A stretch of DNA of 58,859 bases from the NCBI GenBank assembly GCA_964558375.1, contig CAZLCD010000002.1, positions 1 to 58,859 on the forward strand. The letters are read 5' to 3'. A model generated the notes under the pieces. The model had not been told where the DNA came from. It did not search any database and worked only from the letters and a program-made list of their open reading frames with translations. The position numbers and the translations under genes were made by a program. Of this stretch, positions 1,091 through 6,060 are shown in pieces. How positions within the stretch are numbered: the first letter of the stretch is position 1; each line of letters opens with the position of its first letter. Source of the DNA: an uncultured Candidatus Saccharibacteria bacterium. GTDB taxonomy: Bacteria > Patescibacteriota > Minisyncoccia > Phycocordibacterales > PALSA-1337.

Positions 1091-1162
1091 GGCCCCATCG
1101 TCTAACGGTTAGGACAACAGGTTTTCAATCTGTTAACCAGAGTTCGACTCTCTGTGGGGTCA
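1091..1162 (+). tRNA. tRNA-Glu (anticodon UUC), no encoded CCA
   Basis: The 72 nt fold as GGCCCCA-TC-GTCT-AACGGTTA-GGAC-A-ACAGG-TTTTCAA-TCTGT-TAAC-CAGAG-TTCGACT-CTCTG-TGGGGTC-A. All four stems pair, with G-U wobbles allowed. Confidence 0.9.
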
Positions 1163-1303
1163 TGCGATAAAAAACCACGGCTTCATGCCGTGTTTTTTGT
1201 CGCACTACAGAGAGGAGAAAGCCGGACCGAGCGAAGGCGAGGGAGGCAGGGTCGGGAAAATTTTCAGCAGAAAATTATTCCTGACCGACTCTCTTTGGGA
1301 ACA
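1161..1303 (+). repeat. Mini-element copy R1: terminator hairpin + GC-rich box + A/T hairpin + degenerate tRNA-Glu 3'-end copy
   Basis: Positions 1161-1295 are identical, by my alignment, to 3938-4072. R1 contains the GC box GAGAAAGCCGGACCGAGCGAAGGCGAGGGAGGCAGGGTCG (1215-1255). Confidence 0.85.
1164..1203 (+). terminator. Rho-independent terminator immediately after tRNA-Glu
   Basis: The sequence is GCGATAAAAAACCACGGC-TTCAT-GCCGTGTTTTTTGTCGC. It has a GC core stem CACGGC/GCCGTG followed by a T6 run, and flanking A/T runs extend the stem so it could act in both directions. Confidence 0.8.
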
Positions 1304-1350
1304 CAATTTTTTGAGAACTATGATATTATTATTTTAATCACATATTACCC

Positions 1351-1959
1351 ATGCAGTTCATAATTTACTTCTTCACATTCCTTATTATTGTTATCGCTGT
1401 TATTGCATACGGTAATGATTTTTCCCTTGCTTTTCGTTCATCGAAGGTGAGGAGAATTGCGCGTCATTTCAATTTAAATTTCGAGAGAGGAGATCCAAAT
1501 GCAAATTTGATAGAAAACAAAACTATTACATTTAACACAATTAATGGAGTTATTAACGACGTGCCTGTTAATTTTTATGATGTTAAGTCACCGTTTTCTA
1601 CATCGACTGTAATTAATGAAGAGATAAAAAGAACTCACAATGAGTCCTCTCAGGCTGTAGAAAAAATAGCTCCAGTGGCTTTAACTGTAGGGGTCGGTGT
1701 TCTGCCATATTTTTATCGCAGTGGTATGGAAAGAATCTCATTCTTACGCATTGGAAATACTTCAAAGTATATAGGATATCGTACTGGCACAATGGATATC
1801 GCAAATCGATCAAATCTGTATGCTTCAAAGAAGCTTATTATGCAAATCTTTCAAGAAGTACAACAAACTGGTAAATCTACAACTTTTGACTCACTCAAAA
1901 GTGCTGATAAAAACTCCTTTCAATTATTAAGGTCTCTGTATGTTAGGGAGGCGAGCTAG
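1351..1959 (+). CDS. Hypothetical protein with N-terminal transmembrane anchor
   Basis: A 202-aa ORF with a hydrophobic N-terminus (FIIYFFTFLIIVIAVIAY). I recognised no motif. Its last codons overlap a GC-box-like stretch just before the att-like copy at 1975. Confidence 0.45.
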   Translation: MQFIIYFFTFLIIVIAVIAYGNDFSLAFRSSKVRRIARHFNLNFERGDPNANLIENKTITFNTINGVINDVPVNFYDVKSPFSTSTVINEEIKRTHNESSQAVEKIAPVALTVGVGVLPYFYRSGMERISFLRIGNTSKYIGYRTGTMDIANRSNLYASKKLIMQIFQEVQQTGKSTTFDSLKSADKNSFQLLRSLYVREAS

Positions 1960-1974
1960 CAAGCCGAGACCTAT

Positions 1975-1995
1975 GACCGACTCTCTGTGGGGTCA
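1975..1995 (+). repeat. att-like copy of the tRNA-Glu 3' end (GACCGACTCTCTGTGGGGTCA)
   Basis: It matches tRNA positions 56-73 exactly (18 nt) and is preceded by GAC. Upstream, GGGAGGCGAGCTAGCAAGCCGAGACC partly resembles the GC box and flank of the tRNA-Ala element. Confidence 0.8.
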
Positions 1996-2133
1996 CCAAT
2001 TAGAGCTAGCACGAGTAGCGTACAAAAATTAACCATGAAGTTAGACGTTTGAAAACAAATTTTTCTTTCTAAATGAATCTTAAAATGTCATAATACTGTA
2101 TGACTATGCTCATATATTGAGCTATGTTGAAAT

Positions 2134-3937: not shown

Positions 3938-4080
3938 CATGCGATAAAAAACCACGGCTTCATGCCGTGTTTTTTGTCGCACTACAGAGAGGAGAAAGCC
4001 GGACCGAGCGAAGGCGAGGGAGGCAGGGTCGGGAAAATTTTCAGCAGAAAATTATTCCTGACCGACTCTCTGTGGGGTCA
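3938..4080 (+). repeat. Mini-element copy R2: terminator hairpin + GC-rich box + A/T hairpin + exact tRNA-Glu 3'-end copy
   Basis: It is identical to R1 over about 135 nt. The GC box lies at 3992-4032 and the terminator hairpin at 3941-3980. It ends with GACCGACTCTCTGTGGGGTCA (4060-4080). Confidence 0.85.
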
Positions 4081-4126
4081 TAGGTGAACGTTGTTAATGT
4101 ATATAAAATAAGATAAACTTGTTGAT

Positions 4127-4705
4127 ATGAATACTTTATATTTACTCACCATTTTGTATGCATTTTTTTATGGTATAACGATGAAAGTTGCTGATTTGCT
4201 TGATGAACATGGATTAAGATGGTTTAAAGGTGCTGATATCTTTTTTGGTATTTTGTGGGGCGGTTTTGGGGCACTCATAATTCTTTCTAATAATCTTCTT
4301 GCAAATATATACTTGGCCATGATACTAGCTTTTATTATTAGACGAAAAATTGATTATTTTAATCACGGAATAGCAGTGGTGACTATGCTCCTTACCTTTT
4401 TTGCTTCGCAAACAGTATTGTGGAATCCGCTACTAATCTTCTTCGGCATCTTTACTTTGTTCGGTCTAATCACAGACTATGTTGAAGATAAAGTAAAACC
4501 AAAAAACATAATACTAAAAATCTCTAGAAAATTTGTAGATTTGCGAGCACAGTACTATCTATTCCCCTTTTTATATTCCCTCATAACTGGGATTTGGATA
4601 GTGTTCGCTGTCGTTGCTGTAAATATGTTTTCTTATGAAATTATGTTAAGAATTGGAACGATATTGATTAGACGTCAGCAAACTAATAAATCCTTTAATT
4701 CTTGA
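4127..4705 (+). CDS. Hypothetical multi-pass membrane protein
   Basis: 192 aa with about six hydrophobic segments. No recognisable motif. Confidence 0.5.
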   Translation: MNTLYLLTILYAFFYGITMKVADLLDEHGLRWFKGADIFFGILWGGFGALIILSNNLLANIYLAMILAFIIRRKIDYFNHGIAVVTMLLTFFASQTVLWNPLLIFFGIFTLFGLITDYVEDKVKPKNIILKISRKFVDLRAQYYLFPFLYSLITGIWIVFAVVAVNMFSYEIMLRIGTILIRRQQTNKSFNS

Positions 4706-4787
4706 GTTACAAATTTAATATATCCTCTTTGTTCAGCAAGTTCTGAAAGCCACGCAATGGGGTCACAAATAGAGGTGAATTAGTACC

Positions 4788-5516
4788 ATGATAATACCGT
4801 CACCAAAACCAAGCAAATTCTCATATGAGATTAAGGAGATACTCGATCTCTTATATATTTCAATTAATACACAAGAAATTAAGTACAAATTCCCACGTTT
4901 GCATGTAAATAATGAATTTAATAAAAGGTTTTCTGGCGTACTAGATGCTTTTGATGATATTGAAGTTTCTGTCAAACGTCTTACAAAAAATATACAAGAG
5001 TCAATAACGACTAACTCTGAAATACAGCGAAATACTCTTGTTACTCCAGATGTTCACGAAAGAGCGATCCAAGCAGCTAATGAAAATAAAACTGACTTAA
5101 AAACCATACATGTTCAAGCAAAAATATTTCTTGATCGATATAATGCGCTTGTATTATTCATTTTAGGGTGGACTATTCCTGAGTCTTGTTACAAATCGAT
5201 CGGTGAATTTAATAAATGGCTAGCTGATTACGGTGGTTCCGAAGATTCTGTTCTCCGATATAAAAAATCATGCGAACGAGCACTCGATGATATATATGTC
5301 TACATTACTAAATTTCGAAACAATTCTGTAGTACACAGAAATGAAGATATTGCATTAGGAAAAACCGAATGGTTTGAAAATGACATGTTAGGATCAGTTA
5401 GATTAGTCGGTGGAAATCATAACTCGGTGTCTCCACAAGAAGTATTATTCCTTACTGTGGAATACATAGATCTAACAACAAAATTTTGCTTAAATAAAAT
5501 TTCACCAAAAAACTAG
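4788..5516 (+). CDS. Hypothetical protein
   Basis: A 242-aa ORF with no motif I recognise. It lies in the tRNA-Glu accessory region. Confidence 0.45.
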   Translation: MIIPSPKPSKFSYEIKEILDLLYISINTQEIKYKFPRLHVNNEFNKRFSGVLDAFDDIEVSVKRLTKNIQESITTNSEIQRNTLVTPDVHERAIQAANENKTDLKTIHVQAKIFLDRYNALVLFILGWTIPESCYKSIGEFNKWLADYGGSEDSVLRYKKSCERALDDIYVYITKFRNNSVVHRNEDIALGKTEWFENDMLGSVRLVGGNHNSVSPQEVLFLTVEYIDLTTKFCLNKISPKN

Positions 5517-5544
5517 TTTGTTTAAAACTTGCTATAATCAGTAT

Positions 5545-6060
5545 ATGAAAATACCAATAGTAGATGAAAATGACAATGTGATTGAATACCGAGAAAGAGA
5601 CGATCGAGATATAAATTCTATTTATCGTGTTTCTTCTCTGTGGGTTACAGATATTGAGGGGAACATTCTTCTTGCTCGTCGAGCTCTCAATAAAAGCCAT
5701 GATCCTGGTAAATGGGGTCCGGCAGTTGCTGGAACAGTAGAAGAAGGCGAAACTTATGAAGAAAATATAATAAAAGAAGCAAAGGAAGAGTTGGGGTTGA
5801 AAGATATCAAACCCATTATTGGAATAAAAAAACGTAGAAAGACTAAATGGAATTATTTTTCTCAGGAATTTTTATTAACCCTGCCTACCAATTTTAATAA
5901 TTTTAAAATAGCAGAAGATGAGGTTGCAGAAGTTAAATGGTTTTCTGTAGAAGATTTGAAGAAAAAGTTAAAAGAAAATCCAGACGATTTTATCCAGAGT
6001 GTTCATGACCGACTCTCTGTGAGTAATTACAAATTAAGTTATGGTATAATTTTGAGATGA
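5545..6060 (+). CDS. NUDIX hydrolase
   Basis: NUDIX box GTVEEGETYEENIIKEAKEELGL (G-x5-E-x7-[K]E-x2-EE-x-G). I moved the start to the ATG at 5545 (MKIPIVDEND), which sits 6 nt after an extended -10 TGCTATAAT (5530-5538). The stop overlaps the next start as ATGA. Confidence 0.8.
   Translation: MKIPIVDENDNVIEYRERDDRDINSIYRVSSLWVTDIEGNILLARRALNKSHDPGKWGPAVAGTVEEGETYEENIIKEAKEELGLKDIKPIIGIKKRRKTKWNYFSQEFLLTLPTNFNNFKIAEDEVAEVKWFSVEDLKKKLKENPDDFIQSVHDRLSVSNYKLSYGIILR
6007..6021 (+). repeat. Partial att-like copy GACCGACTCTCTGTG inside the 3' end of the NUDIX gene
   Basis: A 15-nt match to the GACCGA + tRNA-Glu 3'-end motif seen at 1975 and 4060. Confidence 0.7.

Follow-up and report, generated by a model that had tools for sequence, protein, structure and literature searches.

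Displaced tRNA-Glu 3' ends and a conserved structured module mark an array of small units in a Saccharibacteria genome

Introduction

An intact tRNA gene accompanied by displaced 3' fragments is the standard signature of genomic islands inserted in tRNA genes (tDNA islands; Islander, PMC4383910), and tycheposon islands carry the same signature, with later arrivals pushing earlier ones inward (bioRxiv 10.1101/2020.12.28.424599). Here we analyze a stretch of 58,859 nucleotides (nt) from an uncultured Candidatus Saccharibacteria bacterium (GenBank assembly GCA_964558375.1, contig CAZLCD010000002.1, positions 1 to 58,859; hereafter the window), in which the 3' end of a tRNA-Glu gene recurs downstream and delimits an array of small gene-bearing units associated with a conserved module of ~80 nt. 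A block of identity that starts in the T-loop, as it does at this locus, is reportedly a recognized class of island sublocation, said to go back to Williams in 2002.

Systems of other kinds also combine folded sites with serial or guided insertion. The attC sites of integrons are imperfect hairpins folded in a strand-specific manner, in which the outer 7 bp (inverse core and core) pair and extrahelical bases are conserved; crossover takes place at the inner end of the 3' strand, and the sequence 3' of the junction is common to the cassette boundaries and the anchor. IS200/IS605 elements (such as IS608), palindrome-associated transposable elements (PATEs), and repetitive extragenic palindromes with their transposases (REP/RAYT) have subterminal hairpins and guide-paired target or cleavage sites and act in a strand-specific way, and small non-autonomous IS200/IS605 derivatives can be served in trans by one enzyme. 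Integrative mobile elements exploiting Xer (IMEX) and phages of the CTX type have no recombinase of their own, form tandem arrays, and use a folded single-stranded site that mimics the target duplex.

Results

Recurrence of the tRNA-Glu 3' end in the window

The window, part of a bacterial chromosome low in GC (37.5%), carries genes for FtsZ/FtsA, YbeY, DnaB, RecR, UvrABC, several aminoacyl-tRNA synthetases, and cell-wall functions, and all sequence relatives found belong to Patescibacteria (candidate phyla radiation, CPR) or are unclassified metagenome-assembled genomes (MAGs), mostly Saccharibacteria. The original prediction, made from the letters of the sequence, had described a recurring tRNA-Glu 3' end downstream of the gene, always in the same orientation and behind a common prefix, and we recovered these four copies, two exact, one degenerate, and one partial (Table 1). 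All of them lie on the plus strand, and TGAC precedes every copy outside the tRNA, which itself has AGTT at that place. The partial copy 4 aligns with the tRNA at a score that 0 of 1000 shuffles reached, and it has the appearance of a tRNA remnant joined to the end of a module, with the core ending after 12 nt. No additional tRNA-Glu 3' ends were present between 6027 and 12000 with up to 7 mismatches allowed. The flanks 3' of the core copies are CCAATTAGAG and TAGGTGAACG, and CAATTTTTTG follows the degenerate copy 1; CCA stands directly after copy 2 only. CCTGAC or TATGAC plus CGACTCTCTGTGGGGTCA joined to TGCGATAAAAAACC is present in linear form at the two modules R1 and R2, which are 99% identical over 143 nt (1157-1299 and 3934-4076, respectively).

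Four matches of this kind were obtained in 0 of 100 dinucleotide shuffles (mean 0.01), in line with the earlier statement that the repeats are no product of chance. As for an assembly artefact, same-strain short-read contigs do break at R1/R2 and at the tRNA end (L012 runs from ~1265 to 3966 and L011 from ~4041 onward; contigs and loci used for comparison bear L numbers), and the order of the segments thus rests on the window's own assembly. However, each segment with its repeat-bearing ends was recovered independently in Logan contigs from other assemblies (L005, L006, L011, and L012), two direct R copies leave one linear path that uses all segments, and the same architecture occurs in more than 100 independent assemblies. 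On the basis of the shuffles and the independent contigs we dismissed chance and artefact, which we regard as extremely improbable. Recognition of the module also explains why assemblies of these genomes break beside tRNA genes. The gene content of the four units agreed with the earlier description when examined by Pfam and hydropathy.

Table 1. Features of the tRNA-Glu array, the tRNA-Ala locus and the second module class
Feature	Position	Strand	Basis
tRNA-Glu(UUC), array anchor	1091-1162	+	ARAGORN; Rfam tRNA model, 60 bits
Repeated core C56-A73, CGACTCTCTGTGGGGTCA, the tRNA-Glu's own 3' end	1145-1162	+	Sequence
Extended bidirectional terminator-type hairpin right after the tRNA, left part of R1	1163-1204		Fold and terminator scan
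Module R1	1205-1285	+	Covariance-model match, 97 bits at 1206-1299; fold z-score -5.1; covariation
Copy 1, CGACTCTCTTTGGGAACA, 3 mismatches; 5' part predicted to form P1 with the anti-T strand	1286-1303	+	
Cargo open reading frame (ORF), 202 amino acids (aa), one N-terminal hydrophobic segment, orphan	1351-1959	+	Hydropathy
Truncated module remnant, overlapping the stop codon of the 202-aa ORF	1944-1977	+	Comparison with other modules
Copy 2 of the tRNA 3' end, exact	1978-1995	+	
Cargo ORF, 559 aa, Schlafen/AlbA_2-like, defence candidate	2134-3813	+	Pfam SLFN_AlbA_2, E = 1.7e-11; PADLOC PDC-S65, PDC-S50
Possible decayed tRNA-Glu remnant, AGGTTCTATCTGTTAA...GGCTCA, just before R2	3905-3939	+	Weak
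R2: terminator hairpin (~3941-3981) and module (~3982-4062)	3940-4062	+	Covariance-model match, 96.5 bits at 3983-4076; fold z-score -6.0
Copy 3 of the tRNA 3' end, exact	4063-4080	+	
Cargo ORF, 192 aa, four hydrophobic segments	4127-4705	+	Hydropathy
Further junction AGTTCTGAAAGCCACGCAATGGGGTCA, whose final 7 nt (GGGGTCA) are also those of the tRNA	4739-4765	+	Sequence
Cargo ORF, 242 aa	4788-5516	+	No Pfam family at E <= 0.01
NUDIX hydrolase, 171 aa	5545-6060	+	Pfam, E = 1.8e-19; PADLOC PDC-S07; Logan gene call
Copy 4, full: TTATCCAGAGT (tRNA positions ~43-54, 5990-6000), then GTTCATGAC, then CGACTCTCTGTG	5990-6021	+	
Copy 4, core part, 12-nt partial (16 nt with the TGAC prefix)	6010-6021	+	
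Same architecture at tRNA-Ala(UGC)	45859-46082	-	Covariance-model match, 93.7 bits
Class-2 modules	L013, L016, L027, L041, L042, L053, L056, L059, L074, L080, L088, L089, L093, L098, L104, L106		

A conserved module with a covarying fold

The ~80-nt module that precedes these copies exists in many versions, and 37 distinct copies could be aligned nearly without gaps. On the tRNA-sense strand, their predicted fold fits a three-way junction of helices P1, P2, and P3. In P1, 7-12 nt located just 5' of A(A/G)GCCGG (the anti-T segment) pair with the sequence that follows (G/C)TGAC; P2, GCC-GGA-CYGAGC-GAAG-GCGARG-GA-GGC, contains tandem G.A pairs and is nearly invariant; and P3, GGGUCG...hairpin...YGUGAC, covaries freely except for a conserved G.U pair, a bulged A, and a YAGCAR loop, and has (G/C)TGAC as its 3' end. 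The corresponding parts of R1 are the anti-T strand ACAGAGAG (~1205-1214), the P2 hairpin with the GC box (1221-1247), and a P3 that ends in CCTGAC (1251-1285).

Compensatory changes on one strand, as expected of a structured RNA, were found in two sets of sequences. In the genome set, 87.6% of alignment cells are paired, compared with 70.5% after shuffling and 35-42% when partners are slid, and two-sided changes occur in 196 cells versus 64 in shuffles. The metagenome set (59 distinct sequences) shows 90.1% pairing and a compensatory change in 27 of 28 pairs, figures that lean towards structure because this set, though collected separately, was aligned to the model; slid controls over both sets gave 35-43% against the observed 88-90%. 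One G.U pair is kept in 35 of 37 genome and 50 of 57 metagenome sequences, the Y:R pair of P2 is U-A, C-G, or U.G with a single exception among 94 sequences from the two sets, and G.U exceeds A.C among paired cells (62 vs 18). The G.U excess, the conserved G.U, and the covariation on one strand thus assign the fold to the tRNA-sense strand, which could be an RNA or a single DNA strand. All seven pairs of P1 have two-sided changes (7/7), and the anti-T segment and the tRNA copy change together (GGAATCG/CGATTCC, GGACTTG/CAAGTCC, GGATTTG/CAAATCC, and GGAATTG/CAATTCC), indicating that part of the element is complementary to the flank that it has acquired from its target.

Distribution of the module family

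The exact 22-nt GC box ACYGAGCGAAGGCGARGGAGGC was used as a probe to scan three collections. In GTDB (one genome per species) it was found in 48 stretches, 46 of them module-bearing and all from Patescibacteria or unclassified MAGs, the classes represented being Saccharibacteria, Paceibacteria, WWE3, Kaiser-, Vogel-, Taylor-, Moran-, and Nomurabacteria. Metagenomes of the Joint Genome Institute (JGI) had it in 62 stretches with ~57 genuine modules, giving more than 100 instances across Patescibacteria, and it was absent from 2.9 million IMG/VR viral contigs. The whole module had no blastn match among 50,697 phage records of INPHARED or 72,556 plasmid records of PLSDB, and on these results an origin as a phage or plasmid attachment site (attP) was set aside. 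In the window itself, the covariance model matched three times (94-97 bits), twice downstream of tRNA-Glu and once downstream of tRNA-Ala. An additional proximal module in L058 (5007-5100) has a variant P2 (AGCUGC-GAAG-GCAGCU) that is fully Watson-Crick and has no tandem G.A, so that strict invariance of the GC box does not extend to the whole family. A second class of modules, which has no tRNA sequence and has an extra 5' hairpin (GGGUGAGA-hairpin-CGC-AAGGCCGG), was also recognized (Table 1); one of its members, L027, has a perfect TTGACA-N18-TATAAT promoter just upstream, which the other copies do not have.

When the window was scanned with Rfam 15, only tRNA and rRNA models matched and none matched the module; for the isolated module, the best non-tRNA scores were far under the gathering score and fell on the terminator hairpin. 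Hammerhead, twister, hatchet, HDV-like, T-box, RNase P, SRP, retron msr, IS605-orfB, and HEARO models were each considered and gave no Rfam match. A full-text literature search found no description of the module, and the family appears to be undescribed.

Association with tRNA genes

In the checkable instances (~60%), the module lies just downstream of a tRNA gene and abuts a copy of that same tRNA from C56, to which a 5' segment of the module is complementary. Modules located 25-80 nt downstream of a co-oriented tRNA account for ~27 GTDB cases and at least 18 metagenome cases, and at least 11 isotypes are involved (Trp, Ser, Leu, Lys, Asp, Glu, Ala, Arg, Tyr, Gln, and Pro). From C56 on, the nucleotides behind GTGAC are those of the respective tRNA; this start was seen in ~25 module-bearing loci from 21 genome records and in more metagenome contigs. 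Well-preserved copies end at the exact tRNA 3' end, including an encoded CCA, after which similarity stops, and older copies retain just the first 7-10 nt, that is, the P1 part. A duplicate from C56 to the 3' end is the classical signature of insertion with restoration of the tRNA.

The locus of tRNA-Ala(UGC), the second complete tRNA gene of the window, near which a piece of R also matched, illustrates this specificity. On the minus strand, the tRNA (46009-46082) is followed by a terminator (~45975-46005), a module (45877-45956), and the copy CGAATCTCTTCGAGTCCA (45859-45876), which is preceded by GTGAC and duplicates the 3' end of tRNA-Ala, not that of tRNA-Glu. The GC box at this locus differs from that of R1/R2 by one mismatch.

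Gain or loss of a unit at exact boundaries and a proposed insertion route

A clean difference between orthologous loci was observed for L058 and L021, both of which have tRNA-Ala, a terminator, and a module. L058 contains one extra unit of 154 nt exactly between T55 and C56, which consists of C56...CCA, a terminator, an anti-T segment, and the variant module, whose last nucleotides are CTGAC. In L038 and L058, a single tRNA is followed by tandem modules whose P3 hairpins are unrelated, and two identical modules stand in tandem in L043. In L039, 1.5 kb of cargo precede a degenerate 3'-end copy, behind which come a terminator and a module, and in L019 a HAD hydrolase and an SDR gene lie between two modules. 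Units consisting of a solo module are uniform in architecture and measure roughly 120-155 nt.

The explanation that we favor, and whose chances of being right or wrong we hold to be about equal, is guided insertion, in trans, of recombinase-less units at the tRNA T-loop. The region 1091-6027 would then have built up from small non-autonomous units that have the T-loop of tRNA-Glu as their anchor. A basic unit would start at C56 with a new tRNA 3' end, in most cases have a terminator hairpin, sometimes contain cargo genes, and end in the ~80-nt module; insertion between T55 and C56 would restore the tRNA from the unit's left end, and the old 3' end would stay to the right of the module, where it would still close P1. 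Since the catalyst is not encoded in the unit, it would have to act in trans. The choice of target would most likely be set by pairing of the anti-T segment, as RNA or as a folded single DNA strand, with the T-loop and T-stem. Later events in the window would include duplication or conversion of R1/R2, truncations, and at least one other type of junction (4739-4765). The data establish the repeats, the module family with its fold, the start at C56, a difference of one unit at exact boundaries, and the lack of a recombinase in cis, and we infer serial insertion in this window, a trans-acting enzyme, and nucleic-acid-guided targeting.

Several observations weigh against this proposal. A metagenome scan for the junction GACCGACTCTCTGTGGGGTCA found nothing, and neither an excised or circular form nor an empty site was seen for this species. 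Modules are kept at orthologous loci across species with compensatory changes in P3 and in the terminator (window tRNA-Ala vs L021 and window tRNA-Glu vs L049), which implies that they are under selection where they sit, and persistent solo modules are no less compatible with a resident functional RNA than with a mobile element. A strong terminator stands ahead of most solo modules and no promoter was evident for them, the only consensus promoter being that of the class-2 module in L027. The duplicates in L015, L044, and L039 overshoot the tRNA end by 12-30 nt into the trailer. A simple series of insertions is also at odds with the order of the copies, as among the full-length copies decay is greatest in the proximal copy 1, and the distal copies 2 and 3 match the tRNA exactly. 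The Schlafen-like gene has homologues (88-55% identity) in unrelated contexts that have neither tRNA nor module, and DNA homology of this region is limited to 2066-3791, so movement of a repeat-bounded cassette is not supported for it. Finally, no recurrent protein and no recurring recombinase was found within 4 kb of ~100 modules.

Search for a protein partner

The statement that the window holds no integrase, excisionase, or transposase held when 65 of its 67 called ORFs were scanned with Pfam (two of 73 and 75 aa were left out), with no recombinase, integrase, or transposase domain detected. A cis-encoded partner was pursued by clustering ORFs around ~100 modules, which gave only synteny groups and ABC transporters, and Pfam assigned recurrent and cargo ORFs near modules to MiaA, ParB, RecG, LeuRS, HAD, SDR, and NT5C. 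The neighbors of modules are housekeeping or small accessory genes, with no consistent gene downstream. A role as a regulator in a 5' untranslated region was set aside; the next called ORF is co-oriented for 43 of 62 class-1 copies, a proportion judged, without a control set, to be unremarkable for such genomes. Promoters ahead of modules were convincing in L027 alone. A primer-binding site of retroviral type was rejected (the copies have the tRNA's own sense, and CCA follows copy 2 only), and mobility of cassettes could not be traced through homologues, the 202-aa ORF having none and the Schlafen homologues lying elsewhere with no tRNA or module.

Conventional integrases and the L001 element

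The lack of an enzyme could also mean that conventional integrases (tyrosine or large serine) made the array and were then lost, in which case the module would be the conserved attP arm of a single, widespread family of integrative elements and solo modules would be deletion remnants. This agrees with the intact tRNA and displaced fragments that mark tDNA islands generally (PMC4383910; bioRxiv 10.1101/2020.12.28.424599), with the truncated remnants at 1944-1977 and 5990-6021, and with an element found at the same tRNA in a strain variant. In this variant, L001 (a contig of Logan SRR28493915), the left flank is 91% identical to that of the window, and homology stops exactly at the tRNA-Glu 3' end, where a different element of ~6 kb follows (3600-9919; right end not mapped). 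It encodes a large serine recombinase of 573 aa, the last ~20 codons of which run antisense into the tRNA gene, as well as a DUF5659 protein, a 407-aa protein, and a 464-aa protein that has no Pfam family and looks helicase-like by eye only; iteron-like repeats TATCTATTTTG lie around 3900-4200. A right-junction candidate, GCCATCATGCGAT at 3706-3718, is weak and shares just 9 nucleotides. The presence of a different element at the same tRNA-Glu marks this tRNA end as a hot spot for more than one kind of element.

However, the L001 element lacks both a module and, at its far side, a tRNA copy, for which reason we rejected it as the source of the TGAC-type copies. Solo units are uniform in architecture and not ragged, neither an integrase fragment nor a recurrent protein lies near ~100 modules, and the searches of viral (exact GC box), phage, and plasmid (blastn) collections were blank. 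Known attP arms, which are double-stranded, show neither covariation on one strand with a conserved G.U nor a 5' segment, ~70 nt from the junction, that is complementary to the target. Considering these points, we think that lost integrases are a rather unlikely explanation.

A resident RNA as an alternative

The conservation noted above invites another explanation, namely that the modules belong to a resident, host-beneficial family of non-coding RNAs at tRNA loci (which might act in processing, insulation, or regulation, for instance), that the tRNA copies are relics of their origin, and that the array arose mainly by homologous recombination or duplication between modules, plus unrelated insertions into a permissive flank of the tRNA. 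Orthologous modules kept with compensatory P3 and terminator changes, an anti-T segment that tracks the tRNA, older copies that keep only the P1 part, class-2 copies with no tRNA sequence (one of them with the perfect promoter), the near-identity of R1 and R2, and the housekeeping nature of neighboring genes would all suit such an RNA. It does not explain why the duplicate starts at C56 and stops at the exact 3' end, why tandem modules with unrelated P3 occur at one tRNA, or why L058 and L021 differ cleanly by one unit, and the downstream gene is inconsistent. We consider this alternative unlikely, and insertion guided by the anti-T segment remains the explanation that we prefer.

These results also bear on how the original prediction had accounted for the repeats, namely as scars of repeated integration into one tRNA gene with older elements pushed distally. 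That the repeats mark boundaries of insertion is retained, whereas a generic integrase scar is not what they are. The distal displacement of older elements does not agree with a most proximal copy that is the most degenerate, nor with R1 and R2 being 99% identical, which points to recent duplication, conversion, or recombination; homologous recombination or conversion between modules thus appears to have reshaped the array. R1, termed a mini-element before, is no decayed element, given that orthologous modules in other species keep the fold through compensatory changes, and the GACCGA prefix is no arbitrary attP arm and turned out to be the terminus of a conserved, covarying module that follows many tRNAs. 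Presence or absence of segments exactly at the repeats, proposed earlier as a check, was observed between species (the 154-nt unit of L058 and L021); within the species, the variant contigs end at the repeats. The original prediction had not noted the junction at 4739-4765, the truncated module at 1944-1977, tRNA positions ~43-54 in copy 4, or the like architecture at tRNA-Ala.

Comparison with known systems

Like tDNA islands and tycheposons, the locus has an intact tRNA at one end and displaced direct partial copies of its 3' end at unit boundaries, several units per tRNA, and cargo of accessory or defence type, and integrase-less remnants also occur among those islands. It differs from tDNA islands in that no unit encodes an integrase (none was found among the 65 ORFs scanned in the 59-kb window or in the surroundings of ~100 modules), in that units may be as small as ~120-155 nt and each ends in a covarying module with a target-complementary segment, and in the lack of the GC box in IMG/VR and of blastn matches for the module in phage and plasmid collections.

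With integrons and clusters of attC sites lacking integron integrases (CALIN), the array shares recombinase-less cassettes lined up at the same site, each closed by a folded site, and the 7-bp outer pairing, the junction at the inner end, and a bulged base resemble attC in architecture. In contrast to integrons, the anchor is a tRNA T-loop and not attI beside intI, the common sequence is specific to the tRNA (from C56 on) and not GTTRRRY, the interior of P2 is nearly invariant whereas attC interiors are not, and the folded strand seems to be the sense strand. No IntI-like gene occurs in the window or within 4 kb of modules, and instead of RYYYAAC/GTTRRRY boxes the junction reads (G/C)TGAC|C(G/A)A plus tRNA-specific sequence.

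As in IS608, the target would be read by base pairing with a short guide near a hairpin. However, elements of this family produce no target duplication or target copy and have guides of 4 nt compared with 7-12 nt here, where a target duplicate of 18-21 nt is always present. Neither the window nor the surroundings of modules showed a Y1/HUH transposase or TnpB, and the IS605-orfB and HEARO models of Rfam were unmatched. The bridge RNA of IS110 offers an analogy as a structured RNA at an element end with target-complementary segments, which is complete across the circle junction; in the present units, the order of module, tRNA copy, and terminator may be comparable. Unlike IS110, there is no gene for a DEDD/serine recombinase beside the putative RNA, the predicted architecture is a three-way junction and not two loops, and a single duplex matches the target. 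IMEX and phages of the CTX type likewise have no recombinase of their own and form tandem arrays at one chromosomal site, but the target here is a tRNA T-loop and not dif, no dif-like sequence is present, and the units are not phage genomes. By analogy, the array resembles integron attC sites in architecture, IS608 or bridge RNA in how the target would be read, and tycheposon or Islander elements in outcome, and it fails a defining test for each of these families.

Other features of the window and of related loci

Among strain variants, L005 and L007 have a different hairpin in place of that at 1163-1204. The three substitutions of copy 1 (region 1295-1324) create TTGGGA with TATGAT 18 nt downstream, which together resemble a promoter 27 nt ahead of the 202-aa ORF, a protein with no Pfam match that matched itself alone among 5.8 billion proteins. 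The remnant at 1944-1977 comprises GGGAGGC (the end of P2) and the 3' half of a P3 of the L015/L021 type, ends in TATGAC, and scored under the covariance-model threshold. The pseudo-tRNA remnants at 3905-3939 and 4715-4765 are marginally above shuffles and are kept as weak candidates only; the former aligns to the tRNA at a score that 35 of 1000 shuffles reached. Three genomes have the 27-mer AGTTCTGAAAGCCACGCAATGGGGTCA in conserved form (window, 4739-4765; L024, 3117-3143; L026, 529-555 and 1451-1477), its resemblance to the tRNA is marginal (63 of 1000 shuffles equal or better), and it may be a reduced module, a pseudo-tRNA end, or the junction of another element. Several copies have a TATAAT-like box upstream, and the L024 copy and one of the L026 copies have a terminator and module directly behind them.

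The NUDIX frame reads through copy 4, and its C-terminal ~20 residues are thus encoded by the junction and its flank; its stop codon overlaps the start of the next gene (ATGA, 6057; HAD, 6057-6677). PADLOC matched both the Schlafen-like and the NUDIX gene to its defence candidates, in keeping with an islet of accessory or defence genes. From 6057 to 10300, up to the first minus-strand core gene, there is a run of small co-oriented accessory genes (HAD, GrpB, a 102-aa ORF, HIT, DUF1801, a 171-aa ORF, an RNA polymerase alpha C-terminal-domain-like gene, and SNase), and the accessory islet may extend past the last repeat. The genes adjoining tRNA-Glu are MscL and LysE. In the strain variant L002 (98.8% identity), a contig that begins exactly at the tRNA-Glu 3' end, ~750 nt (1092-1841) with ORFs of 58 and 171 aa are inserted between LysE and tRNA-Val, an insertion missing from the window and L001.

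Some loci depart from the usual layout of the module family. The overshooting duplicates lie at 740-900 in L015, 1594-1760 in L044, and 3757-3810 and 5278-5330 in L039, the last locus including a promoter-like TTGACAT...TATAGT. In L016, L042, and L059, a class-2 module is followed by a homologous gene of ~236 aa (no Pfam) and then by a gene with a mechanosensitive-channel domain. The class-2 module of L053 (1575-1960, minus strand) lies upstream of tRNA-Ala, in mirror image of the usual layout, flanked by direct repeats of ~75 nt that cover the tRNA promoter and first 13 nt; the upstream partial tRNA copy has a 48-nt hairpin inserted in the D-loop region. An insertion of ~100 nt between P2 and P3, holding a hairpin of class-2 type (GGGUGAGCUUGGG...CCCAAGCGCAAG), was observed in L019 (3397-3553), L020 (~615-786), L097 (3109-3198), and L107 (1327-1410).

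Implications

The array itself is a variation on a known sort, and the module family is the apparently new part that is worth following up. It is possible, albeit doubtful, that Patescibacteria possess a new insertion system in which a reprogrammable segment of 7-12 nt in a three-way-junction RNA or folded single DNA strand pairs with tRNA positions 56-67 and an enzyme in trans inserts recombinase-less units, from ~120-155 nt to several genes, at T55/C56, building integron-like arrays of accessory and defence genes at tRNA genes. Bacteria of the CPR have tiny genomes, and, to our knowledge, the acquisition and shuffling of accessory and defence genes in them is poorly understood. If true, such a system would mean that genes are captured in a new way in a huge and little-understood portion of the bacterial tree, would add a new class of structured RNA or folded DNA with ~100 aligned examples, and might offer a reprogrammable principle of site-specific insertion. 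Even as a resident non-coding RNA, the module would represent a widespread, highly conserved family that is not in Rfam.

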